NCBI GenBank assembly: GCA_964406185.1
Contig: CAYOQS010000003.1
Span: 48,249-112,248, forward strand
Direction of reading: 5' to 3'
DNA: 64,000 nt
Source: an uncultured Methanosarcinales archaeon
GTDB lineage: Archaea; Nanobdellota; Nanobdellia; Woesearchaeales; UBA11576
In this document: positions 2,277-19,700 of the stretch, piece by piece
How positions within the stretch are numbered: position 1 is the first letter of the stretch
Layout: each line of letters opens with the position of its first letter
Translations under genes and position numbers: made by a program
Notes under the pieces: generated by a model
The model's input: the letters and a program-made list of their open reading frames with translations, nothing else
Told to the model about the DNA's origin: nothing
Database searches by the model: none

Positions 2277-2996
2277 TCACTCCCCTCCGAGATACAATCT
2301 TGAGACACGCTTGTCCTTCAAAAGGTCCTTCCCCCTGCCTGTCAGCTTGTTGCGGCCGGACTCCAGGACATATGCACGGTCAGCTATCTTCAAGGCAGCC
2401 TTAGCGTTCTGCTCCACAAGGATTATGGTGGTGCCCGACCTCTTGATATCAATTATCTTCCTGAAAACATCCTTCATGGCATTAGGAGAAAGCCCGAGCG
2501 AGGGCTCATCAAGCAGCAGGATCCGCGGCTTGAGCATAAGCGCCCTGCCTATGGACAAAAGCTGCTGCTGGCCCCCGCTCAAAAACGTGGCTTTCTTATT
2601 GCGCCACCTCCTGAGTTCCGGGAGGAATGTGTATACTGACCCCTGCCTCTTCTTCATGGTCTTGCTGTCAAGTATGAAACCGCCCATCTCAAGATTCTCC
2701 TCGACAGTCATTGTAGGGAAGACCTGTCTGCCTTGCGGGACGAAGCTGATGCCGAGCCTTGTAATGTCGTGAGGCTGCTTCCGTGAGATGAGCTTCCTGT
2801 CAACACCTATCCTGCCGCGCTTCTCCTGAATGACACCGGCAATGCTCTTCAATGTGGTGGACTTGCCGCAGCCGTTCGGGCCTATTATCGCGACGAGCTC
2901 GCCTTCATAGACATCCATATCAATGCCGAACAGAACCTGGAGGGGACCGTACCAAGCCTCAAGATCCTTGACTTTAAGTATATGCCCCAGGTTCAT
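2277..2996 (-). CDS. livF: branched-chain amino acid ABC transporter ATP-binding protein (LivF-type)
   Basis: Walker A GPNGCGKST, signature LSGGQQQLLSIGRAL, Walker B LLLDEPSLGL. It is the last gene of the operon. Confidence 0.9.
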   Translation of the reverse strand: MNLGHILKVKDLEAWYGPLQVLFGIDMDVYEGELVAIIGPNGCGKSTTLKSIAGVIQEKRGRIGVDRKLISRKQPHDITRLGISFVPQGRQVFPTMTVEENLEMGGFILDSKTMKKRQGSVYTFLPELRRWRNKKATFLSGGQQQLLSIGRALMLKPRILLLDEPSLGLSPNAMKDVFRKIIDIKRSGTTIILVEQNAKAALKIADRAYVLESGRNKLTGRGKDLLKDKRVSRLYLGGE

Positions 2997-3766
2997 GCCA
3001 ACACCCCCTCACCGTTACCGAGATAAGCCTCTAGGACCTTCTTGTTGCGCATGACCTCTTTAGGAGTTCCTACAGCAATCTCCTTACAGTGGTCAAGCAC
3101 GATGACTTTCTCGCAGACATCCATGACAAAAGGCATGTCATGCTCTATGAGCAGTATCGTCTTGCCCTCTTTCTTCAGCCTCCTCAGCACCTCCTTGATA
3201 TGCTTCCTCATGGTCGGGTTCACACCAGCGACGGGCTCGTCAAGAAGAATTATGTCCGCGCCTGTCGCGAGAACCCTTGCTATCTCTACCAGCTTCTGCT
3301 GGCCGTACGAAAGGTTCTCTGCAAGAGCTTGCTCTTTCTTCTCTAATCCCACAAGCTTCAGGTACTTCACGCAACGCCTCTGCTTCTTCCGCTCCTCCCT
3401 CTTCACCATATGCGGCCTCAGGAAGATATTAAGGAGGCTCTCGCCAGAATGCCTCTCAGCGAGGAGAAGATTCTCCATCACGGTCAGCTTAGGGAAAAGC
3501 CTGATGAGCTGGAACGTCCTTGTCATGCCCAAGTTCGACACCTGGAAAGGCCTCATCCCGACAAGAGAGCGGTTCCTGTACCTGATCGTGCCGTTGTCCG
3601 GCCTGATGAAACCCGTGATGAGGTTGAAGACAGTTGTCTTGCCCGCACCATTAGGGCCTATCAATGCAGTGATGCTGTTCTTATCCACCGTGAAAGAACA
3701 GTCCTGGACTGCCTTGATGCCGCCGAAGCTCCGGGATAGGTTACACACCTTAAGCACCGCCATCAC
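2993..3766 (-). CDS. livG: branched-chain amino acid ABC transporter ATP-binding protein (LivG-type)
   Basis: GPNGAGKTT, LSYGQQKLVEIARVL, ILLDEP. 4-nt overlap with livF. Confidence 0.9.
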   Translation of the reverse strand: MMAVLKVCNLSRSFGGIKAVQDCSFTVDKNSITALIGPNGAGKTTVFNLITGFIRPDNGTIRYRNRSLVGMRPFQVSNLGMTRTFQLIRLFPKLTVMENLLLAERHSGESLLNIFLRPHMVKREERKKQRRCVKYLKLVGLEKKEQALAENLSYGQQKLVEIARVLATGADIILLDEPVAGVNPTMRKHIKEVLRRLKKEGKTILLIEHDMPFVMDVCEKVIVLDHCKEIAVGTPKEVMRNKKVLEAYLGNGEGVLA

Positions 3767-4643
3767 CCCTCCTGAACCTGTACCTCCCGAGCAGACCGTT
3801 CGGACGCACCATGAGTATCATCACGAGCAGAAACGCGAAAATGAACTGGCGCAGAGCACCCACAGCATAACTCGGAAGGGGAAGGAACCTTAACGGCTCG
3901 GGCAGGAGCAGGATGATGATAACACCCACAACCGAACCCCCCACACTGCCAAGCCCACCGACAATCACCATAGAGACTATCATTATGGACTCCAGCACAA
4001 CAAAAGAGGAAGGGTCGATGAACGTTATGTAATGCGCGTAAAGACTCCCCGCAATTCCTGCAAAGAAGGCAGATATAGCCAAGGCTATCGTCTTGTATCT
4101 TGTAGTGTCCTTGCCCAATGATTTCGCCACCAGCTCATCCTCCCGTATCGCCTGAAGGACACGGCCGAAAGGCGTGCCTGTGACATACCTTATGAAAAGA
4201 TATGTCAGTATCGCGAACAAGAACACCAACAGCATGTAAGAGAATGTTGAGCTGAACGAAAAACCGAACAGGACAGGCTTGGGTATGCCCGGAATGCCAA
4301 GCGGGCCGTTCGTCAAGGATATCCAGTTCCTCATCACTGCCTCTGCGATTATCGCAAAGCCCAGAGTGGCCAATGCCAAATAATCCCCTTTGAGTTTTAT
4401 CGTCGGTATCGCCAGCAGTACGCCGAACACTGCGGCCACAACACCCCCTATGAGCATCGCAGGCCAGAAAGACAATCCTATCTTGACCGCCAAGAGAGCT
4501 GAGGTGTAAGCGCCGATACCATAGAACGCAATATGACCTATGTTCAACAGTCCGGTAAAACCCAACGCAAGGTTCAAGCTAATCGCGAGTATGGCGTAGA
4601 TACCGATCAGCACAAGCAGATGCATCAAATAAGCCTCGATCAT
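3750..4643 (-). CDS. livM: branched-chain amino acid ABC transporter permease (LivM-type)
   Basis: 297-aa polytopic protein with 8-10 hydrophobic helices, positioned between the ATPase and LivH genes. Confidence 0.85.
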   Translation of the reverse strand: MIEAYLMHLLVLIGIYAILAISLNLALGFTGLLNIGHIAFYGIGAYTSALLAVKIGLSFWPAMLIGGVVAAVFGVLLAIPTIKLKGDYLALATLGFAIIAEAVMRNWISLTNGPLGIPGIPKPVLFGFSFSSTFSYMLLVFLFAILTYLFIRYVTGTPFGRVLQAIREDELVAKSLGKDTTRYKTIALAISAFFAGIAGSLYAHYITFIDPSSFVVLESIMIVSMVIVGGLGSVGGSVVGVIIILLLPEPLRFLPLPSYAVGALRQFIFAFLLVMILMVRPNGLLGRYRFRRGDGGA

Positions 4644-5527
4644 CCAGACACCTCCTCACGAGTCTTAGTGCCGAAGATGCCCTGCGGACGGAATAGCAGG
4701 AACAAGATAAGGAGGACAAAAGCGATAGCGTCTTTATAGCCTGAAGGCAGGAACCATATGCCTAAGTTCTCCACGATACCTATAAGGAACCCGCCAAGCA
4801 GAGCAGCAGGCACGTTGCCGATACCGCCGACAATGCTCGCAGTGATGCCCTTAAGTACTGCTCCGAAACCCATGTTATGGTCAAGGTTCTGCTCGAAAGC
4901 GACAAGGATGCCGCTCAGGCCAGCGATTACGCTGCTGAAAATGAATGTCAATCCTATCGTTCTCTCGACATCTATACCCAAAGTAGAAGCGACGCTCCTG
5001 TCGTCGGACACGGCGCGCATCGCCTTGCCCAGACGCACATACCTCATGATGACAAGCAGTATCACGAACATGACTGCAGAGCAGGCAACCAAAATCAGCT
5101 GCGTAGGAGTAATAAGCAACCCGAAAACCCCCCAGCCTTTAGCTATCGGCAGGCCGAACGTCTTGATGTCAGCACCAAAGAACAACAGCACAAGAGCAGT
5201 TATCGCAAGGAAGACGCCGAACGAAGCCAGCAGAAGAGTGAAATTGTCCGCTCCCCTGTCACGCAAAGGCCTGAATACAGCCATGTTTATAGCAAGACCC
5301 ATGATCCCCGAGACAACCAAAGCGAAAAGGATGGACAGCACCAAAGGAAGGCCAAGAACGTTATTGAAAGCATAAGCAACGAAAGCCCCGACTACAAAGA
5401 CAGCCCCAGGACTAAGGTCAAGGAACTTCACAATATTGAATATAAGCGAGAAGCTGGACGCCATAAGGGCGTAGATCGCTCCCGCGATGATTCCGTTCGT
5501 GAGTAGTTGGGGGAGTATCATCGTCAT
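4640..5527 (-). CDS. livH: branched-chain amino acid ABC transporter permease (LivH-type)
   Basis: Polytopic membrane protein. ATGA overlap with livM. The ATG at 5527 follows a GTG at 5530. Confidence 0.85.
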   Translation of the reverse strand: MTMILPQLLTNGIIAGAIYALMASSFSLIFNIVKFLDLSPGAVFVVGAFVAYAFNNVLGLPLVLSILFALVVSGIMGLAINMAVFRPLRDRGADNFTLLLASFGVFLAITALVLLFFGADIKTFGLPIAKGWGVFGLLITPTQLILVACSAVMFVILLVIMRYVRLGKAMRAVSDDRSVASTLGIDVERTIGLTFIFSSVIAGLSGILVAFEQNLDHNMGFGAVLKGITASIVGGIGNVPAALLGGFLIGIVENLGIWFLPSGYKDAIAFVLLILFLLFRPQGIFGTKTREEVSG

Positions 5528-5570
5528 CACTGTGGTGGCGCATAATCAAAAAAGAAAAAAAGAAAAAAAA

Positions 5571-6689
5571 TCAGCCTATTGTCACAGGCCTCCCGTCCTC
5601 AATCATGCGGACGACCGCTTCAGAATGGACAATACCCTTACTGTCTACCTCAAGCTCGCCAAGAGCGCCGTCGAACATATCAATCTTCTTGAGCTCTGCT
5701 ATTACATCATCTGTATCAGGCACTGACTTGCCGTCACCGGCCTTTTCGTATGCAGTGACCAGCAGGTTGAACACATCATAGGCGTTCGGAGAACCTATAG
5801 AGTATGCCTCACCAAACCTCTGCTCAAACGCTCTGCTGAATTCATCTGTAGGGTCAGCTGCCTGGACATACCACTGTCCTTCGAAAAGGCCCATCTGCTC
5901 TGTATACTCGAAGCATTCAATGCCCGAAAGGGGGGTATCAATTCCCAACTCCCTTGTCTGCTTGGTAAGGATCTCAAGCTCGGGTGATAAAGTCTGCATG
6001 AGGTAAACGTCAGGATCATGCTGGCGGAGCTTCATGATTATTGTCTTAAAATCCCTGGTGCCCAGGCCGAAAACCTCCTCATACACCTCAATGCCACGCA
6101 TCTCTAACTCCTCTTTCATCTTGTCATTTATAGCGATGGCTCCCTGCTGGTTCATCAGAAAAACACCGACCTTCTTTATGCCACGCCTCTCTGCCTCTTC
6201 AGCCCATTTTCTGGCCTCTTCATCGGGGGTTGTCCAATGTATGAAGTTATACTTCCCCTTGGCGATATTCTCATCTGAAGCAATACCGAAATGTATCACA
6301 TCATGCTGCGTAGCCAGGGGAGTGACGACATTGCCTGTGCCTGAAGTTATAGACATGATGGCATCCACGCCATCAACACTGATCAGCTTATTCGCAGCAG
6401 TAGATGTGACTTTCGGGTTAAGCTGGTCGTCCTCCAATAATATCCTATAATTATACTTTGTCTCACCCAACATCTCCTTCGCAAGAACAAGAGCATCGCT
6501 AGCCCCTTCGCCAATAAACGCACTCGAACCGCTAAGAGGCAATACCGCACCTATATTCACGACGGGCTTCTGCTTCTCAACAGCGACTGCCTTGCCTGTT
6601 ATGGTCTTCGCATCTGTGCCGCATCCTGAGATGAGCAGCAAAAGCACAAACAGCGATGCCGAAATGATCAAAACAATCCTGTTATCCAT
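5571..6689 (-). CDS. livK: ABC transporter substrate-binding lipoprotein (LivK/type-I periplasmic-binding fold)
   Basis: N-terminal signal with lipobox LISGC. Body is typical of Leu/Ile/Val-binding protein family SBPs. Confidence 0.85.
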   Translation of the reverse strand: MDNRIVLIISASLFVLLLLISGCGTDAKTITGKAVAVEKQKPVVNIGAVLPLSGSSAFIGEGASDALVLAKEMLGETKYNYRILLEDDQLNPKVTSTAANKLISVDGVDAIMSITSGTGNVVTPLATQHDVIHFGIASDENIAKGKYNFIHWTTPDEEARKWAEEAERRGIKKVGVFLMNQQGAIAINDKMKEELEMRGIEVYEEVFGLGTRDFKTIIMKLRQHDPDVYLMQTLSPELEILTKQTRELGIDTPLSGIECFEYTEQMGLFEGQWYVQAADPTDEFSRAFEQRFGEAYSIGSPNAYDVFNLLVTAYEKAGDGKSVPDTDDVIAELKKIDMFDGALGELEVDSKGIVHSEAVVRMIEDGRPVTIG

Positions 6690-6724
6690 TTTCCATACCT
6701 CACATAATCATATCTCAACAAAAA

Positions 6725-7882
6725 TCAGCCGTCCAACGGGACAGACTCTGAATCTTCGACAACCATCACGCTGAACTCTGCGGTGGCGAGGTCGCCCCTG
6801 CTGTCAAACTCCACGAGCGGAAGCGCGACAGCTTCTGTATAGTGCAGATCCTGAAGAGCGTCCCTTATCGCCTCCTTGTCAGTCCCGACCTCCTCTATGA
6901 CTGAAGCGAAAATATGCACCGAGTCATATCCCGTCGAAGTGAATGCGTTGGTGCTCTTTCCCGTAACCTGCGTGACCCTCTCCTTGAAATCATCAGGATT
7001 GCTTATCTCTGCGATGGTGAACATAACACCCTCAGCAACACCTGACTTGAAGAACTCATCAGACTCGAAAGCATCGCCGCCGATCATAAGGACATCCAGA
7101 CCTGACTCCTTGACCTGCCTCACAGCGTTTATCCCCGTAGCAGGATACAGAGGCACGTAGATCATATCAGGGTCCGCAGCCTTGAGCTTCGCTATGACGC
7201 TCCTGAAATCCTTAGCATCCTGGGCCACACCCTCGTCGAAGACAACCTCACCACCAAGTTCCTCGAACCGCTGGACAAACACCTCTTCAAGGCCCTGCCC
7301 CCAGTCATTCTGGACATACAGGACAGCAGCCTTCCGCTTGCCGAGCTCATCAAAAACGAATTCCGCAGCAAAACTTCCCTGGAAAGAATCAGAAGGATAA
7401 GTTCTGAAAACATAATCTCCGATGCCAGTCAGTCGCGGAGCAGAACCCCAGAATATGACCGGCGTGCCGCTCTGTTGGGCAACAGGAAGCGAAGCGCTGC
7501 ACACACCTGAACAGATAGAGCCGACAACAACATCAACACCGTCAACATTCACCAGCTTGTTCATCGCAGTCACGCCTTCCTTGGCAGTGCACTTGTCATC
7601 CTCAACAAAAAGGACAAGCTCCCTTCCGTCTACGCCGCCAGCGTCATTGATCTCCTTCACAGCAAGCTCAATGCCCGCAGTTATGCTCTCACCATAACTC
7701 GCACCCTCACCTGTCAGCGGCAAGGATACACCTATCTTTATAGGACCTTTCTCCTGAACCTTTACTGCGTGACCTGTGACTTTCTTCACAGTCTGATCAT
7801 CTGGCATGAATACCAGAACCGCGCCAACGATGACTATCAGCACCACGATAACGCCCAATAGTATCTGAACTGCTTTCTCCAT
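6725..7882 (-). CDS. second ABC transporter substrate-binding protein (LivK family), N-terminal TM anchor
   Basis: Signal-anchor VQILLGVIVVLIVIVGAVLVF, then a type-I PBP fold similar to the neighbouring SBP. First gene of the operon. Confidence 0.85.
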   Translation of the reverse strand: MEKAVQILLGVIVVLIVIVGAVLVFMPDDQTVKKVTGHAVKVQEKGPIKIGVSLPLTGEGASYGESITAGIELAVKEINDAGGVDGRELVLFVEDDKCTAKEGVTAMNKLVNVDGVDVVVGSICSGVCSASLPVAQQSGTPVIFWGSAPRLTGIGDYVFRTYPSDSFQGSFAAEFVFDELGKRKAAVLYVQNDWGQGLEEVFVQRFEELGGEVVFDEGVAQDAKDFRSVIAKLKAADPDMIYVPLYPATGINAVRQVKESGLDVLMIGGDAFESDEFFKSGVAEGVMFTIAEISNPDDFKERVTQVTGKSTNAFTSTGYDSVHIFASVIEEVGTDKEAIRDALQDLHYTEAVALPLVEFDSRGDLATAEFSVMVVEDSESVPLDG

Positions 7883-7920: not shown

Positions 7921-8035
7921 TAATTACTGATTAGTTACGAAAGAGGCGGGCGGGAATATATATAAATTTTTATTATAATTTATAAATATATTAGATATTT
8001 CGAAAAATTTAAATAAAAGGTTGTATTAGTGCTAA
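7921..8035. promoter_or_regulatory. AT-rich divergent promoter region with several TATA-like boxes
   Basis: atatatataaatttttattataatttataaatatattagatatttcg lies between the SBP gene start (7882, -) and the AbrB-PhoU gene (+). Confidence 0.45.
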
Positions 8036-8183: not shown

Positions 8184-9068
8184 ATGAAAAGACGCGTCGT
8201 AGAGCAGGGTGGGCTGACCCTGATGATAAGCCTGCCAAGGAAATGGGCAAAAAAGCACGGCCTGTCCAAAGGGGACGAGCTGGAGCTCACAGAGAGAGGG
8301 AAAGAGCTAGTGCTGGCCACCTCAAAAGGGCTTGAAGAAGAGTCCAGGACAACCGTAGAGATAGACCCTGCGAAGTTCATGGGCAGGCTGATACACGCAC
8401 CATACAGGTTCGGATACAAAGAGCTCGAGATAAAATACCCAGACCCATCTGTCGTGCCAGAGATAGAACATTACCTGGACCAGACACTAGGATACGAGAT
8501 AGTCGAGCAAGGCACAAACCACATGAAAATAGAGATGGTCGCGAGCGAAGCAGAAGGGGACTTCGACAAGATGCTCCGCAGGATAATGCTGCTGGCACTT
8601 GACATGGTAAAGGACCTGACTACTGCAGCAGAAGAAGGCGACACTGAAAAGCTCAAAGAGATCGCAGGGCGGGAGAAAACAAGCAACAAGCTCACCAACT
8701 ACTGCGAAAGGATACTCAACAAGCACGGATACACAGACATCAAGAAGACAAGCTTCATGTACTGCACAGTCTGGGCCATGGAGCAGGTGGTGGACGATAT
8801 AAGCGACATGTGCGAGATACTGGCAGGATGCGGAAAAAAAGAAATGATGTGCGATATCCTCAACGCGTTCTCAGGATACATCCGCAAGTTCAACAGCGTA
8901 TTCTACAAGCACCCATACGAAGAACTCTGGAAATTCCGCAGCGAATACGACAAGTTCATGAAGAATATAGAAAAGACGAAAGCGAAAACACCTGAAGAAT
9001 ACAAGGTACTCGCGCTCATGACGAGCGCAACAGAAAAGATGAGGCATGTGACGATATCACTGCTATGA
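8184..9068 (+). CDS. AbrB/SpoVT-type swapped-hairpin DNA-binding domain fused to PhoU-like helical domain (archaeal 'phosphate uptake regulator'-type)
   Basis: ATG at 8184 preceded by GGAGAG. N-terminal LTLMISLPRKWAKKHGLSKGDELEL matches the AbrB-N fold. Confidence 0.75.
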   Translation: MKRRVVEQGGLTLMISLPRKWAKKHGLSKGDELELTERGKELVLATSKGLEEESRTTVEIDPAKFMGRLIHAPYRFGYKELEIKYPDPSVVPEIEHYLDQTLGYEIVEQGTNHMKIEMVASEAEGDFDKMLRRIMLLALDMVKDLTTAAEEGDTEKLKEIAGREKTSNKLTNYCERILNKHGYTDIKKTSFMYCTVWAMEQVVDDISDMCEILAGCGKKEMMCDILNAFSGYIRKFNSVFYKHPYEELWKFRSEYDKFMKNIEKTKAKTPEEYKVLALMTSATEKMRHVTISLL

Positions 9069-9069
9069 A

Positions 9070-11400
9070 TCAAGGCCAATGAAGCTCATTCTCGCCCATG
9101 ATGGCCGAATAACTATTCGGATTATCCTGCTGGCAGTACTCTGTAATATCTCTCAATCCTGAACTTAGCCTGGAACACCTCTCACGCATACGCTCTTCAG
9201 GAGTGCTGGAAATATAATCATCCAATTCTTCCTCAACAGCATCATCCGCCCTGTCAAGCCCGTCGATACGCATCCAGTTATCAGTCAGACCTCTCGCTTC
9301 GTTCACCGCAGACCAAGTGTGCAAATCAATATCATACAACGCCTGGGATATCCGGGCATACGGAACAGGAGGGTGATCCATGTGCGATGCTCTCGGGTGA
9401 TCAGCGGCAGATCCTCTCAAAAGATCCATATCTATATCAACACCAGACTCCCTTGCCGCGTCTATCACAGAACCAAGGTTAAGGCATGCAGCAGCAGCAG
9501 TCTCAGGATCGTGGAAAGTCTGGTAATACCTGCTGTAGATGAAAGTCATGTTGGTCCGCTCAAGACCTCCGCGAGTGCCTCCCAGCTCTGCGGTAAGTAC
9601 AGGCATCCACCGTTCGACCTCTGACTGCGCCTCAAGTTCATTGACCTTGTCATTAAGGTGCGAGAAACCATAAGCAGCAATACCTGACCCTATCGCGACC
9701 GCAAATGCCGCGGCAGGAATCCCATAACGCAACAAGCGTCTCTTGATCTTCTCTTTCTTCTGCACCTCATCGTGTCTTCCTATCAGCTCATCGTTCTTTC
9801 TGCGCATGTTGATGACATCATAAGGGCTGACCTCCTCATTGGTCTCAAAAGAAGGGTTGAAGCGCTCAGCGATTTCAGCCATATCACCCTCTTCGAGAGG
9901 AGTGTCGAAAAGGCTGTTCAGGTAATCCAGCTTCGGGTCTTCAAGACCCTCTATCTTACCATCCTTGACGAGCTCCTGGGCGAACAAGGTGTAGAAGTAA
10001 CGCCTGGATGACTCCATACGGTCAGCATCATGCCCTCTCTTCTTCTCAAGAGAGAGATACCTGCGGGCTATCCGCAGAAGCTGCTTCCTCTTGTTCATCC
10101 TGAAAGATGAGTCAAACTCCTCACGTGAAGGCGTATCTTTACCATCCTGCGTGAAAAGCTCTGTCACAGTATGATACGCATCATCCAGCAGAGCCTGCTC
10201 TGCAGGCGTGCCGTCCTCAAGCACGTGCGAGCCGCCCCTGTGATCATAGATACCGGACTGCGCCCAGCGCTTGAAAAGCAATGACTCAAGAGTCTCAAGC
10301 CGGGAACGCTCAAAATCGATATGGGTATACCTCCTGTCATCACCCTCACCAGTGACCATCACATTCCCAAGGTTCAGGTCCCAAGGGGTGAAGTACACCT
10401 GCTCAGGCGTCGAGTCGCCGTCAATGCCTATAAGATCAAGCACTGCAGACCTCTCATCACCCGCGTCATAGAACACTGCGAAAGCCTTCTCGTCGTGCAG
10501 AACACCCGAGGTCGTGATGACGCCCTTGTCTATAAGATGCTGCCTGAACTCAGGATCGCACTTTAAAAGGATATCCTCGAACACCTCACGCCTGTAATCC
10601 TTTGCCATGAAGACAGGCTTCCTGAAAACCCTGCCTTTGTTAGACAGGCGCCTGCCCTGCCTTGTCCTCATGAAATCCCTCGAACGGTAGCTCGTGACAA
10701 GGTCTATGCCCGTCACTTCAGAGAGGACCTGTACCCTGTCGTCTATAGTGATGGAGTCATCAGAGAATGCCTCCTGCAGGTCCTTCCCGTTCACGAACAC
10801 GTTATGCAGGACGTTGTTCCCGCTATGAAGCGGCCGGATAGGAGCAGCACGGCGCAACTTAGCGGCGATACCAGAAGACATTTCCACCTGCCCATCCCTG
10901 ATGAAATCAACAAGGGAACGGTAGAACTGCTGACCGCGAGTCGCGAGCTCCCAATCTTCAGCATCATCAAATACGCTGTGGAAAGTCCTCACCACAGTGC
11001 CGCCAGGGTAGAACCTCGCTGCCTCGATCAGCATGCCGTCATCATTATAGTTCTTGGCAGTGCTCTTATCGGTCTTTATCCTTGAGAAGCGGGGAGCCCC
11101 GCCGTTGAGTTCCTGTATCTCATTCACGACAACAGGATCAAGACCTTCATCAATCATCTGGTCCAGATACTTCAATATGTTCAGCCTGTCGTCCTCGCCC
11201 ACCACCTCGTTCAAAACGTCAAGCACAAGGTGCTGTGAGTGAGCCCTCTTCCCATCAGGAGTCTTTGAGCCGGTGTAGGCGTCCAGCTCTTCCTTGTGAA
11301 GCGTCTTGATATCATCGAAAGGCAGCTCGAAGATCTCATTCCAGCTGTAGTTCCCGGTACAGATATTTTCCAGATTCCCTGCGGCATCGTCAGAACTCAT
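9070..11400 (-). CDS. single-pass membrane protein with cytoplasmic atypical protein-kinase-like (APH/ELK-type) domain and ~200-aa extracytoplasmic C-terminal domain
   Basis: Brenner-type catalytic motif PWDLNLGN followed by IDFE, with an upstream VFMAK lysine strand. One TM helix GIPAAAFAVAIGSGIAAYGF. The start codon overlaps the stop of the upstream RHH ORF (ATGA). Confidence 0.6.
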   Translation of the reverse strand: MSSDDAAGNLENICTGNYSWNEIFELPFDDIKTLHKEELDAYTGSKTPDGKRAHSQHLVLDVLNEVVGEDDRLNILKYLDQMIDEGLDPVVVNEIQELNGGAPRFSRIKTDKSTAKNYNDDGMLIEAARFYPGGTVVRTFHSVFDDAEDWELATRGQQFYRSLVDFIRDGQVEMSSGIAAKLRRAAPIRPLHSGNNVLHNVFVNGKDLQEAFSDDSITIDDRVQVLSEVTGIDLVTSYRSRDFMRTRQGRRLSNKGRVFRKPVFMAKDYRREVFEDILLKCDPEFRQHLIDKGVITTSGVLHDEKAFAVFYDAGDERSAVLDLIGIDGDSTPEQVYFTPWDLNLGNVMVTGEGDDRRYTHIDFERSRLETLESLLFKRWAQSGIYDHRGGSHVLEDGTPAEQALLDDAYHTVTELFTQDGKDTPSREEFDSSFRMNKRKQLLRIARRYLSLEKKRGHDADRMESSRRYFYTLFAQELVKDGKIEGLEDPKLDYLNSLFDTPLEEGDMAEIAERFNPSFETNEEVSPYDVINMRRKNDELIGRHDEVQKKEKIKRRLLRYGIPAAAFAVAIGSGIAAYGFSHLNDKVNELEAQSEVERWMPVLTAELGGTRGGLERTNMTFIYSRYYQTFHDPETAAAACLNLGSVIDAARESGVDIDMDLLRGSAADHPRASHMDHPPVPYARISQALYDIDLHTWSAVNEARGLTDNWMRIDGLDRADDAVEEELDDYISSTPEERMRERCSRLSSGLRDITEYCQQDNPNSYSAIMGENELHWP

Positions 11401-11531
11401 CTTTCCCCAAGCACCTCCTTTACCGCGTACTCAAAGGCGTGGGACTTGTTGCGGAAACGGCCTTCTCGCATGGCTTCGCGTATCATCAGGATAGTGTCCT
11501 CGTCCACAGAAATACTTACCTTATGCTTCAT
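11397..11531 (-). CDS. small ribbon-helix-helix (CopG/Arc/MetJ-like) DNA-binding protein, unlisted in ORF track
   Basis: 44 aa, MKHKVSISVDEDTILMIREAMREGRFRNKSHAFEYAVKEVLGER, with a beta-strand then two helices as in RHH. Its TGA overlaps the ATG of the 776-aa kinase-like gene. Confidence 0.55.
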   Translation of the reverse strand: MKHKVSISVDEDTILMIREAMREGRFRNKSHAFEYAVKEVLGER

Positions 11532-11688
11532 CCTGAGTGGGAAGGAATACCACTCATATATAAAGGTTTCGTTTTGTTGTCTCTGTTAAGTGGTTACAGA
11601 TAGGAAGTTTTAAATACAGGTCCCTGATTTATGTATAAAAGCTACATAACATATGGTGTTTAGGCTGCTAATGTGTTGAGGGAACCAG
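11532..11688. promoter_or_regulatory. divergent promoter region between RHH-kinase and AbrB-kinase operons
   Basis: Contains catatataaagg, ttttaaat and tttatgtataaaagc TATA-like boxes. GAGGGAA SD precedes the ATG at 11689. Confidence 0.45.
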
Positions 11689-11838
11689 ATGCAGCAATTC
11701 GTGATAACAAAGAAAGTGGCAAAGCACGGCAGCCAGGCCATCATAGTAGTACCCCGAGTTCTGGAGAAACATCTCAAGCCAAAGACAGTAGTGAAACTGA
11801 CGATCGATGTCATAGAGCAGCCGGAGGGTGATGAGTGA
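11689..11838 (+). CDS. small AbrB/MazE-like swapped-hairpin DNA-binding protein, unlisted in ORF track
   Basis: 49 aa, MQQFVITKKVAKHGSQAIIVVPRVLEKHLKPKTVVKLTIDVIEQPEGDE. It resembles the N-termini of the two flanking AbrB-PhoU proteins. Its TGA overlaps the kinase ATG (gTGATGg). Confidence 0.55.
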   Translation: MQQFVITKKVAKHGSQAIIVVPRVLEKHLKPKTVVKLTIDVIEQPEGDE

Positions 11839-13604
11839 TGGGAGCCGCAGAAGACCTCGCACCAGAGAACCAAATTGACGAGATCGAACATATCGACAGG
11901 CAGCTCGGAGAAGGCAAGTACAAGAACATAAGGAAGTTCACAGAAGGGGGTACGCGAACACTATACAAAGCAGAATGGGGCCCTGCAGAAGAGACAGTCA
12001 TAATCAAGGCAGACAAAGACGATACGCAACTCACGTCGCCACGCGCGCAGAGACATGCAGAGAGAGGGTATATAACCAGCAACGAGATAAGCGTTCTCGC
12101 GCTCATCCGCAAGCTGGAGGGACCTGAAAGGTACCACATCCAGCGGATATACGACTTCAACGCAGACTGCACCATATCAGTCGAGCCAGAGTTCGAATCA
12201 CAGACACTCGAGGAGATGGTCGACAATGAAGGTCCACTGACATCCGGGGATTTCAGAACAGCATTCACACAACTCATGGAATTCAGCCAGTATCTGATCA
12301 ACGAGGCAGGATTGTTCCACAGGGACCTGAAACCCTCAAACATCCTCGTCGGAAAAGACAAGCAAGAAGAACTGGAGATAAGAGTGGTGGATTTCGCGAA
12401 CGGATGCAGGAAAGACAAGACAGAAGCAAAGATGATGCCTACCGCAGGAGGACATCTGGTCATGGATCCCCTTATAATCGGAAAGTTCAATGCTGCAGCG
12501 GAAGGAAAGTACGACGAGAAAAGCGAGATATACGCCATAGGCACAGACATGGCATTCGCACTGACAGGAGAATACCCTGTAGAGTACGAAGCAGACAAGG
12601 GATTCGGGATATGCAAATTCACAGGAGAGTCACTTCTCGATGAAGAAGGGAATCTCGACCCTGCCGCGCACGACAGAGCTATAGACGCATTCCTCGCAAA
12701 GGAACTTCCGAGACACGCTCGCAGATACAGGAAAATAATCAAGAACTGCCTCACGCTTGACGAGAAAAAAAGATACAAGTCGATAGACAAACTGGCAAGA
12801 GAGTTCGATAGAGCAAACACATCAAAAAAGCCATTCATCATGAGCATCGCGACAGGCCTCCTGATAGGCGCGGCAGCCGTGGGAGGTTTCGGACTTGCAT
12901 ACCACCAGAACATACAGGCTGATGAACACGCGCAGGAACTCAGACAGTTCACAAGAGATGAAGAGACACGGAGAAAATATGAGGACATGTTCAAATCAGC
13001 GTATTCATTCGTCGAACAGAGCATAATAGACGGCAAAGTAAAGAACGATCTCGTGTTTGAACACCCTTACTTCATGCTGTACGAACAAGAAGAGATAGTC
13101 GGTATCGCAAAAAGACACGACCTTGAACCAGGACTCATCGCACGAATCCTGCTGGTAAACAAGCTATACTCAAGAAGGTCAGGATCAGACCTGGGGCAGT
13201 CACCAGTATACCTATTCGATCCCATAGAGACAAGAAAAAACATGTATCGCGTAGAATCAATCTCCAGATGGGACTCAAGCAAAAGAGAACCTTCAAACAG
13301 CCCTGCAAAGATACTGGACGAAGGAGCCGAAAGGCTAGCAGGACTTATACGCGAGAATGACGGCGACATCGAGAAAGCACTGACCGGGTTCTACAGTCCG
13401 GTATACCCTCAAAAGGAGGGCGCCCACAGCAGATGGTGGCTACATGGGACATACACCGACGACATAGCCGAAGTTATAGACCAGGAGATAGAGATTATAG
13501 TCCATAATGTCATCAACGGACCGGGTGCAGGAATGGGCGGATACCACATAAATACGCTGGTAGGAGATTATATACAGAAAAGATATGCGCCGCTACAAAG
13601 ATGA
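11838..13604 (+). CDS. eukaryotic-like Ser/Thr protein kinase, single TM, ~240-aa extracytoplasmic C-terminal domain
   Basis: VIIKAD (beta3 Lys), HRDLKPSNILV catalytic loop, DFANG (DFG-like). TM helix PFIMSIATGLLIGAAAVGGFGLAY. Confidence 0.85.
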   Translation: MGAAEDLAPENQIDEIEHIDRQLGEGKYKNIRKFTEGGTRTLYKAEWGPAEETVIIKADKDDTQLTSPRAQRHAERGYITSNEISVLALIRKLEGPERYHIQRIYDFNADCTISVEPEFESQTLEEMVDNEGPLTSGDFRTAFTQLMEFSQYLINEAGLFHRDLKPSNILVGKDKQEELEIRVVDFANGCRKDKTEAKMMPTAGGHLVMDPLIIGKFNAAAEGKYDEKSEIYAIGTDMAFALTGEYPVEYEADKGFGICKFTGESLLDEEGNLDPAAHDRAIDAFLAKELPRHARRYRKIIKNCLTLDEKKRYKSIDKLAREFDRANTSKKPFIMSIATGLLIGAAAVGGFGLAYHQNIQADEHAQELRQFTRDEETRRKYEDMFKSAYSFVEQSIIDGKVKNDLVFEHPYFMLYEQEEIVGIAKRHDLEPGLIARILLVNKLYSRRSGSDLGQSPVYLFDPIETRKNMYRVESISRWDSSKREPSNSPAKILDEGAERLAGLIRENDGDIEKALTGFYSPVYPQKEGAHSRWWLHGTYTDDIAEVIDQEIEIIVHNVINGPGAGMGGYHINTLVGDYIQKRYAPLQR

Positions 13605-14489
13605 GCCCATCAACGGGCTTGTAGCGAGATAGAAATTCCTTACGGCAGACATCAGGTGGTATACGATCACCCTGTCGCTGCTCTTCTGGAGAAGCGCGTA
13701 ACCTTTCTCATGGATAATTTTCTTCTCTGCATCGTGGACTTGCTCCATGATGACAATATCCTTCTTCATATATGCCCGCTTGAGGTTCTCGAAGAGAGCC
13801 GCGCAATCCTTTGCAAAAGACTTCAGCGACCTGTCTATCCTAACACTGCCAGACCTGAAGCGCAGGAGGATGAAGTATATTTCGCGCTGAGCGTGGATCA
13901 CATGTGTCTGGTATGCCCAGAAAAGCTGCGGATTCTTAATGTCAACAAGCCGCTTCGAGACGATACGGAAGCAGAAATTATTGTACTGCTGGATCTTCGC
14001 TTCCACCTCCTCGATGTCTATCAATGGTTTCTTCTTATCAAAAATTTCCAGGAGAGCCTCAAAAAGCTCGGATATGTTGTAGAGCATCTTCTTGCTCAAT
14101 ACCTCGAACTGCTCAGGGGAAGGCTCTGTTATGCTCTCTACCACACAGGACCTCTTCGACCGCTTTATCACCTCAAAACCCAGAAGTCTTGTCTTTACCA
14201 CTTTGTTGAGTATACTGAACTGCTTCTCGGAATGGAACGAGACATCAATAGAATCATACCCTATCCTGTAAGCGTTCGTTATCATCGTACGGACAGCAGA
14301 CTCTGTAAGACTTGTTATATTAAGCGATGTTGCCCTCTTCTTTACCTTTGTCTCAGCAGATACCAGAAGACCTTCAGGAAGCTCACGCACATCCACCTCA
14401 TCGCCTGCATCGAGATTCTTCTCTGAAGCCCACTTCTTAGGCAATGTGATGGTGACAGAGTCCTTCTGCCCTATTATCTTACGTCTCAT
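13593..14489 (-). CDS. second AbrB-domain + PhoU-like regulator (paralog of 8184-9068)
   Basis: Likely start MRRKIIGQKDSVTITLPKKWASEKNLDAGDEVDV (ATG 14489), a parallel AbrB N-domain. The 3' end overlaps the kinase gene by 12 nt. Confidence 0.7.
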   Translation of the reverse strand: MRRKIIGQKDSVTITLPKKWASEKNLDAGDEVDVRELPEGLLVSAETKVKKRATSLNITSLTESAVRTMITNAYRIGYDSIDVSFHSEKQFSILNKVVKTRLLGFEVIKRSKRSCVVESITEPSPEQFEVLSKKMLYNISELFEALLEIFDKKKPLIDIEEVEAKIQQYNNFCFRIVSKRLVDIKNPQLFWAYQTHVIHAQREIYFILLRFRSGSVRIDRSLKSFAKDCAALFENLKRAYMKKDIVIMEQVHDAEKKIIHEKGYALLQKSSDRVIVYHLMSAVRNFYLATSPLMGSSL

Positions 14490-14676: not shown

Positions 14677-15756
14677 ATGAACATACTGAACAGGATAAAG
14701 AACTACGCAGCAGCAGGGCTCGCGGCTGCGACAATAGCATTGAGTCCAGGTGTGAAGGCAGAAGAGGCAACACCAAGCACGATCAGCGCAGAGGAATTCG
14801 TCACATCAGACTTCAGCACAGACACGAGGATTGAACTGGAGCATTCAGGACTGGAAGCGGCAGTGGAGCACTTCACAGGCCCTGACTTCGACGACCACTC
14901 AACAGCGATAGGCGTCAGGACACCGGAACTACACGGATTCCAGCTCAGGCAGACAGGCATAATGTCATACGGAGCAGATACAGAAGAGAACGGAGGGTTC
15001 GCAAGTAACCTTGTATATGCAATACCCGGAACAGACCTGCGGATAGGAGCAGGAGGAGGAGCGCACTTCCCAGATCAGGACTGGCTCGCGCACGGGACAT
15101 TCGGGTACTTCGGTGACGTGCTGCACACCAACCTGGGCGTGTTCCATCATGAAGGCGGAGAATGGCCTGTAGACGGCCGCGGGTACGCATCGATACTCGT
15201 GCCTGGCGGTTTCTACATGAGTGCGGGAAAGTGCGAAGGGCCAAACCTGTTCGCGATGCTCGGATACATAGAAGGAGAAGGCGGGTTCAACGTCAGGAAC
15301 AGGAACTGGCTAGACCTTGAATCGCTGGGAAGCAGGCATGACGTGATGCTGACATGGAACAGCTCAAGAGACAGACGAAGTTATGAGTTCCAGAACCGGT
15401 TCTGGACGAACGTAGAAGGAGAATGGGACATGCTCGACGGGCACTACGACCCAACCATAGGATTCGCGCCACTGCTGGGCATGTACGGAGAGTATGATGT
15501 CGAACTGAGATTCAACCAAGACCAGTCAGGCATGGGAGGTGGAGCGTCATTCGCATACAACCCGGGCAACAGGAACAGCATGGTACAGTTTGGGATAGAC
15601 TACAGGCACAACTTCCATGATGAAGACTGCCTTACCATGGATCTTATCGCAGGAGTAAACCTCGACGGATGGCTGGTCTTCGCAGGCGCGACAGCAGACA
15701 TCCTCAACCAGGACATAGCAGGACTGGTATATGTCGGGAAGTGGTTCGACCTGTGA
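14677..15756 (+). CDS. secreted hypothetical protein (signal peptide), Gly/aromatic-rich, possible beta-rich fold
   Basis: MNILNRIKNYAAAGLAAATIALSPGVKA signal. SD GGGAG. Ends ...VGKWFDL. Confidence 0.65.
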   Translation: MNILNRIKNYAAAGLAAATIALSPGVKAEEATPSTISAEEFVTSDFSTDTRIELEHSGLEAAVEHFTGPDFDDHSTAIGVRTPELHGFQLRQTGIMSYGADTEENGGFASNLVYAIPGTDLRIGAGGGAHFPDQDWLAHGTFGYFGDVLHTNLGVFHHEGGEWPVDGRGYASILVPGGFYMSAGKCEGPNLFAMLGYIEGEGGFNVRNRNWLDLESLGSRHDVMLTWNSSRDRRSYEFQNRFWTNVEGEWDMLDGHYDPTIGFAPLLGMYGEYDVELRFNQDQSGMGGGASFAYNPGNRNSMVQFGIDYRHNFHDEDCLTMDLIAGVNLDGWLVFAGATADILNQDIAGLVYVGKWFDL

Positions 15757-15799
15757 ATAACCCATAATTTTTTATACCCTTTTTCTTTTGATCGTTTTT

Positions 15800-16654
15800 A
15801 TGGTGCGGAGTCCTATCGTCGCGGGACAGTTCTACCCTGCAGGGAAAGAAGAGCTTGAAGAAGAGATAAGGAAGAGCTTCAATCACAAGTTCGGGCCCGG
15901 CTCGCTGCCCGGGAAGCGGCAGAGCGACAAGAAAGTGTATGGGGTGATAGCGCCGCACGCAGGATACGCATTCTCAGGAGCGGGCGCTGCGTGGTGCTAC
16001 AAGGAAATAGGAGAGGCAAAGTTTCCTGATACTTACGTAATTCTGGGCGTCAACCATCCAGGGACGTCCACGTGCGCAAGCGACGAGGACTGGGAAACCC
16101 CACTAGGCACGGTAAAGTGCGACAACGAGCTCGTCAGCGCGATGGAAAAGAAAGGCCTGCCCGTGGATAACGGCCAGCACAGCCAAGAGCACAGCATCGA
16201 GGCGCAACTGCCCTTCCTGCAGTTCGTGAGCGGAAACAAGAAAGATGATCTTCAGATAGCCTGCATAATGATCGCTGATGATGCGCATGAAAAATGGGCA
16301 GACATCATATCATCTGCTGTTGAAGCGCTCGGCAGGAATGTAGTGTACATCTGCTCATCTGACTTCACGCACTACGGATACAGCTACGGCTACGTTCCAT
16401 TCGAGGACAATGTCAAAGAGAACATGGAAAAGCTCGACAGAGAAGCCATAAAGCTGATAGAAAAAAGCGATGCAGAAGGATTCCTCCAACACTGCAGCAA
16501 GACAGGAGCGACGATCTGCGGAAAGCACAGCATAGCCGCACTCATACAGCTCATGGAAGGAAAGAAAGCAGAACTTCTGAAGTATTACACATCCGGAGAC
16601 GTGCTGGGAGACTACGGCAACGCAGTAGGGTACGCGTCCATAGTGTTCAGGTAA
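15800..16654 (+). CDS. MEMO1-family protein (AmmeMemoRadiSam system protein B-like)
   Basis: VAGQFYP...APHAGYAFSG signature. ATG at 15800; the ORF track started at an upstream TTG. Confidence 0.8.
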   Translation: MVRSPIVAGQFYPAGKEELEEEIRKSFNHKFGPGSLPGKRQSDKKVYGVIAPHAGYAFSGAGAAWCYKEIGEAKFPDTYVILGVNHPGTSTCASDEDWETPLGTVKCDNELVSAMEKKGLPVDNGQHSQEHSIEAQLPFLQFVSGNKKDDLQIACIMIADDAHEKWADIISSAVEALGRNVVYICSSDFTHYGYSYGYVPFEDNVKENMEKLDREAIKLIEKSDAEGFLQHCSKTGATICGKHSIAALIQLMEGKKAELLKYYTSGDVLGDYGNAVGYASIVFR

Positions 16655-16773: not shown

Positions 16774-19700
16774 TCAATCTTTTTCTGCACCTTTTTCCTG
16801 AGATCCAGCAGACTTGCCTTTCCTGCCCGTGAATACCTGCATCACAAGGAACACCACAACGATAAGTCCGACAACAGCACCAAGATACATGAGAAGCCTC
16901 TTGTTCTTCGCAAAGAAAGAAGTCTCAGGAGCCGGCTCAGGCTCCACTTCCTGCACAACAGCAAGCTCAGGAGGAGCGGCCTGCCCGACAGGCTCCTCCA
17001 CTTCAGCTACAGGCTCAAGCTCCTCACGAGGCTCGGGCTTCGCAGGAGGAAGAAGAGGAATCGGCTCAGGCTTCTGGACAAGATAGAAGACAAGCAGAGC
17101 CTGGTTGTCATAACTGCCTGAATACACGATCTGGATATCATCCCTGCCGTCACTGTCAAGATCAAAGTTCTTGGTAAGGCCGTTCGCAAGAGTGTGTGAC
17201 TGGACCCCATCATACAGGGAGTCAAGCTCCAGGACTGAGCCTGTGAAAGAGTCCACCTTGAAAAGATAAGAAGCGCCATCATAAGACACGCTGATCTCCT
17301 GGCTCTTAGGAGCCTCCACGATCGTGGACGTATAAGTCGGGACAACACCAATAGGCTCGCTGGACGCGGAAGCTCCACCGCCACCTCCTCCTCCACCACC
17401 GCCAGAACCGCCGCTCTCCTGAGAGCCGCCGGCAGAGAAGACAGAGAAATGGGAGACGTTGGCCCAAACGCGATTGGCATCAGTATCGACCCCAGAATCC
17501 GGCTCCTGCTCCCACTCACCTGAAGATGTGTTAAAGTAATAGATCCGCAGCGAGGATTCAACGATGTTTGAAGGAAGAGAAGCATCAGAATAGTAGATGC
17601 TCAAGATATACCAAGAAAGGTTTCCCTCCACCTCTGCAGAGGCGTTGACAGCGACAAAAGTGCCGAGCCCAAGCGCAGCGAAGCCGTTTGCGGAAGAGGC
17701 CTCGACATTCTCAGGATTGGTATTGTACTGCGCGACAGCGACAGAACCAGTGGTGTTCTGCACTGTAGACAGGTTTATGTCAACACCAGCCGTCGCGTTG
17801 ATATTGAAAGTCGCGTTCGCCGTGGTGTTAACGCCTGTCGTGGCGTTCTGCTGAGGCACGATGATCGTCCTCGACAAGGAAAGCCCGCTGTTAGAAGCGG
17901 GATCCGTGCAGTTGACATACCATGACAAAGAGCCTGCAGCCAGCTGAACAGAGCTGAACGTCGTGACTGTGGAGTCGGCCACAGACGAATTCGACGCAGA
18001 TGCTGAACCGCCAGCGTACAAAGTGCAGGCCAATGTCGAAAATAGGTTATCCGAAGCGTTGAAGACAAAATCAGAAGAGTTGGTCATCAGAGCAGTCCTG
18101 TTGGAAGGAGAAGACAGACAGACAGAAGGAGCTGCGGAGTCGTAAGTCATGATCATCACAGCAGACACGTTCGTGTTCTGGCCGTCAGAACATGATATGT
18201 TCCAAAGATAAGTACCCTGCGAAGGGATTGAGTAGCTAAGGTTATTCTCTCCGAAATTGCTGAACACACTATAGTTCACCATAGAACCATCGAAGATGAG
18301 CGAGCAGTTGACTGTCGTCGCTGATTCATCACTGACATTGAACACGAACACCTGCAGGGAAGAGGAGACATTGGCGTTGTCAGCAGGGCCGGAAAGGTTC
18401 AGGGAAGGAGCCAGGTTATCAGACACGTTAGGCGCGTAGACTAATGACGTCGAAGTCATATTGAACGGGTCGCTAGCATTGAAATAATAAGTATAATTGC
18501 CCTCGACAAGAGTTGTCTGGTAATAATAGACCTTGCCATCCACAACATCTGTGTCCCCTGCGTCAGCAGGGAGCATGGAATAGTTCGAGCTGTTTATCAC
18601 GACATACATGAACTCTGCAGTGTGGTTGTCAGCATCAGAATAATTCACAGTATAATTGAACATCGTCGTCGTATTGCCATCAACAGGACTCAAAGAGGCT
18701 GATGAAAGTACAGGCACATCGTTCATTATCGTGATGTTCAGCTTATCAGTGATGTTGCTCATGTAATCCGTCTCGAAAATCGTGAAGAACGTGTAGTTCC
18801 CGAAATCACCAGTCGCATTAACCATCCAGCTAACATTGCAGGAAGAGCCGTCCTGCATCACGTCAAGACATGAAGAGTCATGAGGGTTCGCAGTGGTGGT
18901 ATAGAAAGGAGTCGCCCCCACGGTCGTGGATACCGCGCCTTTGGAAGTGACAGCGGAATAGACATCGATGCGAGGATATGTGTAATCCGTCGTCGCATCA
19001 TAAAGATCGACACCATTGAACCCAAGAAGCCACTCCACCTGCTGCGGAGTAAGAGTGCGGCCGTGCTTCAACCTAAAGTACTGCTGTATGATGGCCGCGG
19101 CGCCCGCCACATGAGGAGTGGACATGGAAGTGCCTGACTTGGTCATGTGAGTACCATCATAATCAGTCGCCAAAATGCTGTTTCCAGGAGCCATAAGGTC
19201 CAGGGTGAAGCCGCGCTGACCCCAAGACACAATACCATCACCGTCATCTGTGATGCCTACAGATGTCGCGTTCCTTATACAGCCCGGAGAAGCTATACCC
19301 TTGTCACCGCTAGTCCACCTGTTGCCTGCCGCGATCGCGACGAAGATGTCATCAGCGACAGCATTGTTGACAGCCTCAGTCATGACCGGGTCGAAATCCT
19401 CACACCCAAAACCATTATTGTCATACACATACCACGTGCCTATGCTCATGCTGATCACAGATATGTTATAAGCCGCCGCGTTGCTCACGCACCAGTCAAC
19501 ACCCGCAGCTACATCAGACATCCAGCCAGAACCAGTCGAATCCAAAGCCTTGACCGCAACAAGACTGGCGCCAGGAGCCACACCAGTATAGGTCGAATCC
19601 TCAGAAGCAGCTATGCCTGCACAATGAGAACCGTGAGAGTGATCATCAAGAAAACCTGAAGAGCTCTCCTCATCACCGTCAGTGCAGCATCCCGTACTGT

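Follow-up and report, generated by a model that had tools for sequence, protein, structure and literature searches.

Within a 64,000-nucleotide stretch of contig CAYOQS010000003.1 (the window throughout this text), from an uncultured archaeon of the Woesearchaeales, two operons diverge from a short intergenic region. Each begins with a gene for a very small protein and continues into a gene for a single-pass membrane protein with a kinase-like cytoplasmic domain, and each kinase gene is faced by a convergent gene for an AbrB-domain regulator of about 300 aa. These genes most likely represent two head-to-head copies of a cassette that recurs in DPANN archaea of the Woesearchaeota/Nanoarchaeota type. 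The left copy most likely consists of a ribbon-helix-helix (RHH)-like protein, an APH-like kinase and regulator 1, adjoining a Liv-type ATP-binding cassette (ABC) transporter operon, and the right copy, with the same confidence, of a 49-aa protein, a Hanks-type kinase and regulator 2, adjoining the gene for a secreted 359-aa protein. The genes of the two copies, in window coordinates, are the following.

8184-9068, plus strand: AbrB-PhoU-like regulator 1, 294 aa, with a conserved MKRR start
9070-11400, minus strand: 776-aa single-pass membrane protein (cytoplasmic domain, one transmembrane segment, ectodomain)
11397-11531, minus strand: 44-aa RHH-like protein, coupled to the 776-aa gene
11532-11688: divergent intergenic region, 157 bp between the starts of the two operons
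11689-11838, plus strand: 49-aa small basic protein, its stop codon overlapping the kinase start
11835-13604, plus strand: Hanks-type Ser/Thr receptor kinase, 589 aa from the GTG at 11835 or 588 aa from the ATG at 11838
13593-14489, minus strand: AbrB-PhoU-like regulator 2, 298 aa, with a conserved MRRK start

The coordinates, strands and lengths that the initial annotation gave for the four central reading frames are exact, and its estimate of about 155 bp for the shared promoter region compares with 157 bp measured. The overlapping stop and start codons that it reported at both junctions were confirmed. As read from the sequence, the stop of the 44-aa gene and the start of the 776-aa gene share ATGA, a 4-nt overlap, and the TGA of the 49-aa gene (11836-11838) overlaps by 1 nt the ATG at 11838, which is the kinase start in the source annotation (588 aa); the overlap with the alternative GTG start at 11835 is 4 nt. 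The convergent regulator genes, a third cassette member, had been overlooked. Regulator 1 is separated from the 776-aa gene by 1 nt, regulator 2 overlaps the 589-aa kinase gene by 12 nt, and the source collection annotates the latter regulator in its 298-aa form. No Rfam or tRNA matches were obtained in the 64-kb window.

Conservation of the cassette was followed in two samples of metagenomic loci: ten loci seeded by a kinase (L001, L004, L005, L006, L007, L009, L170, L171, L173 and L175), and 74 non-redundant loci seeded by the 49-aa family, which remained after removal of six duplicates from the best 80 (58-83% identity) of the 249 loci that encode relatives of the 49-aa protein. All linkage counts thus come from loci seeded by a kinase or by a small gene. 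A convergent AbrB regulator was present in all ten kinase-seeded loci, and an AbrB homologue converges on every 776-family gene examined. Among the 49-aa-seeded kinase loci, the regulator was present in 25 and absent in two of the 27 informative cases, another 14 being undecidable at contig ends. Of 64 informative loci, 36 have the kinase gene directly abutting the 49-aa-type gene and four more have it at a distance of one gene, and overlap of the small-gene stop with the kinase start is very frequent. Behind the remaining 24 copies of the small gene stand unrelated genes instead of a kinase, and a small upstream gene was found in only six of the ten kinase-seeded loci (overall, it is missing from L001-L003, L005, L173 and L175). 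Because 24 of 64 copies lack a kinase neighbour and four of ten kinase loci lack the small gene, the small protein is not obligatory.

Three types of small partner were distinguished. The 776-type kinases are preceded by the RHH type in the window, L004 and L170, by a 65-aa AbrB type in L171, by the 49-aa type in L096, L094, L160 and L145, and by no small gene in L001, L005 and L173, while the small gene before Hanks kinases is of the 49-aa or 65-aa type. Ectodomains, too, are common to both Hanks and APH-like heads. For instance, the 776-type ectodomain, with the motif FGDxxTAxAAYL...YEA...G...DNW, shows homology to those of canonical Pkinase receptors by hhalign (85%, E 6e-6). Of 35 proteins that match only the transmembrane segment and ectodomain of the 776-aa protein, 29 are Pkinase proteins. 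Since this ectodomain recurs on Pkinase receptors and the small types swap, the kinase head, the ectodomain and the small partner are evidently shuffled within a constant frame.

The twin divergent arrangement itself, which the initial annotation had put forward as a four-gene module, lacks conservation: in none of the ten kinase-seeded loci are both kinase types paired, and the arrangement was not seen in any of the relatives examined. The homologues of the 776-aa protein (L001-L005) are flanked by Memo on one side and an AbrB-domain gene on the other, in the absence of any neighbouring Ser/Thr kinase, and those of the 589-aa kinase (L006-L009) occur in quite different neighbourhoods. The back-to-back placement of both cassettes appears to be a peculiarity of this genome. 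Other local variants were noted as well. In L096 (3-4197, plus strand), a 49-aa gene separates two tandem 776-type kinase genes, and L173 (6103-7347, plus strand) has two extra genes, for 224 and 188 aa, between its 776-family kinase and the AbrB regulator, the 224-aa product containing the 776-type ectodomain alone (E 2e-11).

The linkage could reflect co-regulation without any phospho-relay. The small proteins and AbrB regulators would then be ordinary transcription factors of their neighbours, and the kinases would have their substrates elsewhere. This reading is consistent with the third of small-gene copies that stand alone yet keep the same promoter element, with the existence of AbrB-domain paralogues away from kinases, and with the many substrates known for archaeal Hanks kinases (PMC5007285). 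It sits less well with the frequent stop/start overlap between small gene and kinase gene, or with a convergent regulator that is almost always present, even across kinase heads without detectable sequence similarity. Moreover, because Hanks and APH-like heads swap within an otherwise constant context, a common local partner can be argued for. On balance we regard simple co-location as rather unlikely.

The small genes had also been likened to the antitoxins of toxin-antitoxin and Hip-like systems. In a module of this kind, or an anti-phage one, the RHH or 49-aa protein would act as antitoxin and autorepressor, neutralising a growth-arresting kinase. The overlapping stop and start codons, the swapping of small types between kinase families (as antitoxin DNA-binding domains do) and a palindromic candidate operator at each promoter are all in keeping with it. 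However, a toxin could not tolerate the loss of the small gene seen in four of the ten kinase-seeded loci, and the neighbours of the 776 locus (Memo, the AbrB regulator and the Liv-type binding protein) are kept in genomes only 42-47% identical, a stable chromosomal synteny. A third conserved gene and conserved target genes misfit a two-gene addiction module. Furthermore, the kinases are single-pass membrane proteins of 550-800 aa with ectodomains, and the fold is not HipA-like. PADLOC returned for the 589-aa kinase generic kinase-domain matches to defence models such as PD-T4-6 and PglW, at no more than 55 bits, near and no better than its Pfam Pkinase score, and gave no matches for the six other cassette proteins. 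The toxin-antitoxin reading therefore finds little footing here, and we consider it very improbable.

Both small reading frames were confirmed as genes by homologues and by the position of codon changes. The 44-aa gene differs from its L004 counterpart by 16 synonymous and seven non-synonymous codon changes, and the 49-aa gene from that of L091 by 22 and five, respectively; because these differences fall mainly at third codon positions, both are real genes under purifying selection. Both products are also far better conserved than the adjoining kinases, the 44-aa protein sharing 84% identity with its L004 counterpart and 50% with that of L170, against at most 47% for the kinase next to it. The 44-aa gene (window 11397-11531) is missing from the source gene calls, which leave the stretch unannotated, and so are its homologues in L170 (3841-4014) and L174.

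The assignment of the 44-aa protein to the RHH fold has weak support. A strand-helix-turn-helix pattern, typical of this fold, is visible by eye, and RHH_1 was matched with 14 bits (cut-off 20.5) and an E-value of 0.05, while two of three homologues matched the haloarchaeal RHH regulator CdrS (E 0.036 and 0.004). A PDB profile search with the 44-aa alignment, on the other hand, returned chance-level matches and no RHH structure. An RHH-like N-terminus (MMQSIQIRLTKKLIEKAQKLV...SEVIRDALRRL) was also encountered in L005 (2061-3068, minus strand), fused to a Metallophos phosphoesterase and encoded divergently from a 776-family kinase gene that has no small RHH gene of its own; this protein could be a phosphatase counterpart of the kinase.

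For the 49-aa protein, the proposed AbrB/MazE-like nature could not be demonstrated. Its family shares the core ITKK[IV]AKHG[SK]QAIIVIPR..LE..LKP.T, followed by an acidic tail. The window protein has no Pfam AbrB/MazE match, and only three of 25 relatives matched Pfam MazE_antitoxin, at E 0.005 or worse. Compared by hhalign with the AbrB domains of the neighbouring regulators, the family reached a probability below 1%, its comparison with the 65-aa type was not significant, and a PDB profile search with the 49-aa alignment gave only chance-level matches. For the 65-aa small partner, which precedes other kinases in L006 and L171, a match to the AbrB domain was obtained with hhalign (91%, E 1e-6) and with Pfam (E 0.009). 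The one source-named record of the 49-aa family reads 'hypothetical protein'. A tandem fusion of two 49-aa units, giving a single protein of 108 aa, is encoded in L127 (4992-5318, plus strand).

The 776-aa protein is organised as follows.

Residues ~100-515: APH/choline-kinase-like cytoplasmic domain
Residues ~556-579 (nt 9664-9735): transmembrane segment
Residues 580-776: ectodomain
10309-10380, minus strand: catalytic core, with D341-L-N-L-G-N346 at nt 10363-10380 and I-D362-F-E364 at nt 10309-10317

The atypical kinase fold proposed for this protein was borne out by several lines of evidence. When its first 555 residues were compared as a profile with Hanks kinase domains (hhalign 89%, E 2e-6), the alignment placed D341-N346 on the HxDLxPxN catalytic loop and IDFE on DFG. 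Against the PDB, the family profile matched the LanKC kinase domain, choline kinases and APH catalytic loops at E-values from 4e-4 to 0.5. An AlphaFold model built with 37 sequences has a predicted local distance difference test (pLDDT) score of 80.4, most of the cytoplasmic domain exceeding 90, and displays a bilobal protein-kinase-like fold of the APH/choline kinase type; the model rests on this 37-sequence alignment, as one made with five sequences had a pLDDT of 44 and was unusable. The best structural matches are APH, choline/ethanolamine kinase, MTR kinase and macrolide phosphotransferase, and matches of the APH fold also include the peptide kinases LanKC, LxmK and TvaE and E. coli YihE (1zyl), which we take to be a protein kinase.

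The motifs PWDLNLGN and IDFE, quoted for this protein in the initial annotation, are present and represent, respectively, the Brenner motif of phosphotransferases and the 'IDFE' motif of choline kinases. In the 37-sequence family alignment, D341 is kept in 29 of 29, N346 in 31 of 31, D362 in 30 of 30 and E364 in 28 of 30 sequences, and since the first three are invariant and the fourth nearly so, the domain looks catalytically competent as judged by its conserved residues. The position two before D341, occupied by His in the motif HxDxxxxN, is Thr here and Ala or Ser in homologues. The string VFMAK, in contrast, had been misread as a kinase motif: it is present, but homologues have FNPN, FEGR or FTPK in its place, and it does not correspond to VAIK. 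No Pfam or NCBIfam family, including APH and Choline_kinase, was matched at E<0.1, and PADLOC gave no match either; the domain is a fold-level relative of APH/Choline_kinase that lies outside the curated families. Its family is small, with 79 representatives at E<=0.001 among 1.84 billion proteins, and a repeat word-indexed homologue search with the 37-sequence alignment returned only six proteins.

Enzymes of the APH/choline kinase fold mostly phosphorylate small molecules, and the 776-aa protein might be a membrane-anchored kinase of this sort, acting on a lipid head group, sugar, amino-alcohol or antibiotic-like compound, in which case the left half of the locus would be a metabolic or resistance operon under RHH control. 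The best structural matches, as named above, are all small-molecule kinases, the DLNLGN and IDFE motifs are of the choline-kinase type, and the locus adjoins an uptake transporter. Yet the same ectodomain and cassette context are found in bona fide Hanks protein kinases, and the peptide kinases are among the APH-fold matches. A C-out ectodomain, moreover, makes little sense for a purely metabolic cytoplasmic enzyme. We consider this interpretation improbable. As compared to the APH/choline kinase family, the alignments of the 776-aa domain imply a large helical insertion and an N-terminal extension of ~100 residues, and the domain is fused to a transmembrane segment and an ectodomain common to Hanks receptor kinases; we know of no receptor-type architecture in the APH/choline kinase family.

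The kinase of the right cassette is a Ser/Thr kinase of the Hanks type, in agreement with the earlier reading of its HRDLKPSN and DFANG motifs. Its parts are these.

Residues ~20-320: Ser/Thr kinase domain
Residues ~334-352 (nt ~12834-12890): transmembrane segment
Beyond the transmembrane segment: ectodomain of ~235 aa

The Pfam Pkinase match covers residues 81-315 with 57.1 bits against a cut-off of 31.7 (E 2.3e-15) and includes both motifs, HRDLKPSN being the catalytic loop and DFG reading DFA. In 11 members of the family, K58, R163, D164, N169 and D186 are invariant and H162 nearly so. The glycine-rich loop carries EGGTRxxY (G39 invariant, T40 nearly) instead of GxGxxG. The ectodomain has no Pfam or PDB sequence match, and a lytic-transglycosylase-like assignment that had been considered for it was dropped for the same reason. 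A scan of contigs with the kinase alignment keyed on the generic HRDLKPSN motif and returned only unrelated bacterial kinases.

The receptor-like topology suggested for both large proteins was supported. Each has one hydrophobic segment with a Lys/Arg-rich N-terminal flank, and because this cluster precedes the single segment, the positive-inside rule places the N-terminus inside and the C-terminus outside in both. A direct comparison of the 776-aa and 589-aa proteins gave no similarity (best E 0.7), and their own ectodomains are also unrelated; the link between the 776 and Hanks families runs only via other family members.

The two convergent regulators are paralogues (E 1e-11). Pfam MazE_antitoxin was matched with 34.3 bits in regulator 1 and 26.5 bits in regulator 2, against a cut-off of 24.7, and this AbrB/MazE domain was found in all 21 regulators tested, followed by a helical region. 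PhoU was matched in regulator 1 with 18.3 bits, below its cut-off of 23.5, and was absent from regulator 2.

Promoter elements were recognised through the BRE/TATA (B-recognition element and TATA box) consensus of this genome, GAAASNTTTAWATA, which has nine matches in the window against 0.29 expected (for instance at 136-149, 8002-8015, 23612-23625, 30444-30457 and 55323-55336). The intergenic region between the two operons contains two such elements, placed back-to-back, and two repeats.

11557-11570, minus strand: BRE/TATA element GAAACCTTTATATA of the RHH-776 operon, an exact match to the consensus; the same element stands upstream in L001, L004 and L005
11603-11616, plus strand: BRE/TATA element GGAAGTTTTAAATA of the operon of the 49-aa protein and Ser/Thr kinase, with one mismatch to the consensus; this architecture is kept upstream of the small gene in many loci
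11534-11556: inverted repeat TGAGTGG-N9-CCACTCA between the TATA box and the ATG of the RHH operon, as read from the sequence
11630-11648: palindrome TATGTA-N7-TACATA, containing the conserved heptamer ATGTATA

From its position, the inverted repeat at 11534-11556 is a candidate operator that would cover the site where transcription of a near-leaderless mRNA begins. The corresponding position in L004 is occupied by another inverted repeat, AAGTA-N11-TACTT. The palindrome at 11630-11648 is a candidate operator of the small gene. It coincides with the only occurrence of TATGTATA in the 64-kb window, and its heptamer recurs among relatives: of 73 non-redundant loci, 49 have ATGTATA or TATACAT in the 140 nt that precede the small gene and 27 have at least two copies, with a peak 10-40 nt before the ATG. 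Its density upstream of the 49-aa family is ~1 per 140 nt, as compared to 0.04 locus-wide and ~0.14 in control intergenic DNA. Because the orientation of the repeats differs between loci, some having direct and some inverted copies, a protein-binding site is favoured over an RNA hairpin. Many promoters of small genes and 776 operons in other loci also have an upstream element ACT..AGTRGTWAC. We do not claim ATGTATA as an operator common to the AbrB regulator genes, upstream of which its enrichment is only ~3.5-fold.

On their outer sides, the two regulator genes face the following neighbours.

2277-7882, minus strand: Liv-type ABC transporter operon, assigned by Pfam matches
14677-15756, plus strand: gene for the 359-aa secreted-looking protein, of a family without assignment

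According to Pfam, the Liv-type operon encodes a pair each of Peripla_BP_6 binding proteins, BPD_transp_2 permeases and ABC ATPases; it is complete, with a binding-protein gene at its head. In ten loci, including L001, L004, L005, L096 and L175, such a gene diverges from that of the AbrB regulator, and it belongs to 776-type and related Hanks (kin4-type) cassettes. A 359-aa-type secreted-looking protein is divergent from the regulator in six loci with Ser/Thr kinase (kin2-type) cassettes, including L007, L009, L113, L118 and L161. Judging from gene order, the Liv-type operon is a candidate regulated target of the 776-type cassette, and the 359-aa gene a candidate target of the Ser/Thr kinase type. 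The 359-aa protein itself has no Pfam or PADLOC match. Its N-terminus is signal-peptide-like, its sequence is Gly- and aromatic-rich and beta-looking, and it ends in ...YVGKWFDL, an aromatic C-terminal ending that recalls bacterial outer-membrane proteins and is odd in an archaeon. Further downstream, Memo (15788-16654) is followed by an S8 subtilase of 1346 aa that contains an I9 inhibitor domain (16774-20814), and the same order is found beside the 776-type cassette in L001 and L004. In the window, the Ser/Thr kinase cassette and the 359-aa gene together have the look of an insert that separates Memo from the RHH gene.

Taken together, we interpret the region as a DPANN-specific cassette for receptor-kinase/transcription-factor signalling, a reading to which we give about an even chance. 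Its parts are most likely a small DNA-binder-like protein, usually present, encoded first and coupled to the kinase; a single-pass receptor kinase with a modular ectodomain; and a convergent AbrB-type transcription factor that also has a helical domain with weak resemblance to PhoU and whose gene diverges from a likely target operon. The ectodomain would sense an external or host-derived cue, possibly via the neighbouring binding protein. The cytoplasmic kinase would then phosphorylate or bind the AbrB-type regulator, the small protein or both, which would change how these bind DNA, both at the promoter of the divergent target and at the operator of the cassette itself, be it the ATGTATA element or the inverted repeat. 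It is plausible that a kinase acts in this way on its own transcription factor. The precedent of Bacillus subtilis, in which AbrB is phosphorylated by the Hanks kinases PrkC, PrkD and YabT and its DNA binding is lowered (PMC4837961), supports such an action.

Several observations weigh against this interpretation. About a third of the small-gene copies lie away from kinases and four of ten kinase-seeded loci manage without one, as described above, and AbrB-domain paralogues also occur away from kinases (L006, L108, L168). Fold support for the 49-aa and 44-aa proteins does not go beyond weak, sub-threshold matches, and the PhoU match is likewise sub-threshold, being seen in five of 21 regulators with a best E-value of 9e-4. 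The ATGTATA enrichment upstream of regulator genes is weak and was obtained over a mostly coding background. The usual small-molecule substrates of APH/choline-kinase-fold enzymes count here as well, and part of the synteny may reflect common descent.

The cassette parts belong to known superfamilies, and their logic resembles known kinase-regulator signalling. The B. subtilis system similarly combines membrane-anchored Ser/Thr kinases (PrkC, PrkD, YabT) with an AbrB-domain DNA-binding protein. To our knowledge, however, the kinase and AbrB genes are not side by side in B. subtilis, whereas here kinase, small partner and AbrB regulator form a fixed cassette in a DPANN archaeon, with phosphorylation as its presumed link. 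HipBA shares with the cassette a small gene of DNA-binding type that lies upstream of, and overlaps, a protein-kinase-like gene, and a palindromic candidate operator. In contrast to HipBA, the cassette kinases are non-HipA-like membrane receptors, the partners are of the RHH, 65-aa AbrB or 49-aa type and not helix-turn-helix proteins, some genomes do without the small gene, and a conserved regulator gene is added as a third member.

The regulators are reminiscent of the archaeal AbrB-PhoU predicted transcription factors, in which an N-terminal AbrB/SpoVT domain is followed by a helical PhoU-like region. Unlike in those, the regulator gene here is systematically convergent with a receptor kinase gene, and the PhoU similarity is sub-threshold. 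In Pyrococcus furiosus, PhoU is among the larger families of predicted transcription factors (seven proteins), with AbrB counted separately (three) (PMC6316755). Two-component and binding-protein-dependent sensors such as LuxPQ and TorTS also encode a membrane sensor kinase together with a DNA-binding regulator and, like one cassette type, have a neighbouring periplasmic-type binding protein, which in the cassette is linked by gene adjacency alone. The chemistry of the cassette would differ, being Ser/Thr (or other O-) phosphorylation, and Pfam found no HisKA, HATPase_c or receiver domains in any cassette protein. Few or no two-component genes occur in the loci examined, and the cassette would stand in for a two-component system. 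The view of the initial annotation that the architecture is undescribed agrees with a limited literature search, in which neither the cassette nor receptor-type APH-fold kinases nor the 49-aa family were found described.

DPANN archaea are tiny and mostly host-dependent, and how they sense their hosts or surroundings is essentially unknown; Ser/Thr kinase signalling in archaea is poorly mapped in general. A cassette that recurs in hundreds of metagenomic loci offers concrete, testable wiring, from the receptor kinase through the small protein, the AbrB regulator and the cis element to target operons that encode a secreted protein or an ABC transporter of the amino-acid type. Gene annotation of these genomes misses some of their regulatory repertoire, given that the 44-aa gene is uncalled in L170 and L174 and that the 49-aa record is a 'hypothetical protein'. 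More tentatively, as a possibility that we doubt more than the signalling role itself, the three-part, lineage-specific cassette could be the main means by which DPANN archaea sense the outside or their hosts, with an APH-fold domain recruited as a receptor protein kinase interchangeable with Hanks kinases, and with the 49-aa proteins as a new and extremely conserved family of kinase-controlled mini-transcription factors that recognise ATGTATA repeats. The occurrence of an APH/choline-kinase fold in a receptor architecture, swapped with Hanks heads, bears on how protein-kinase-like folds change their substrate class.

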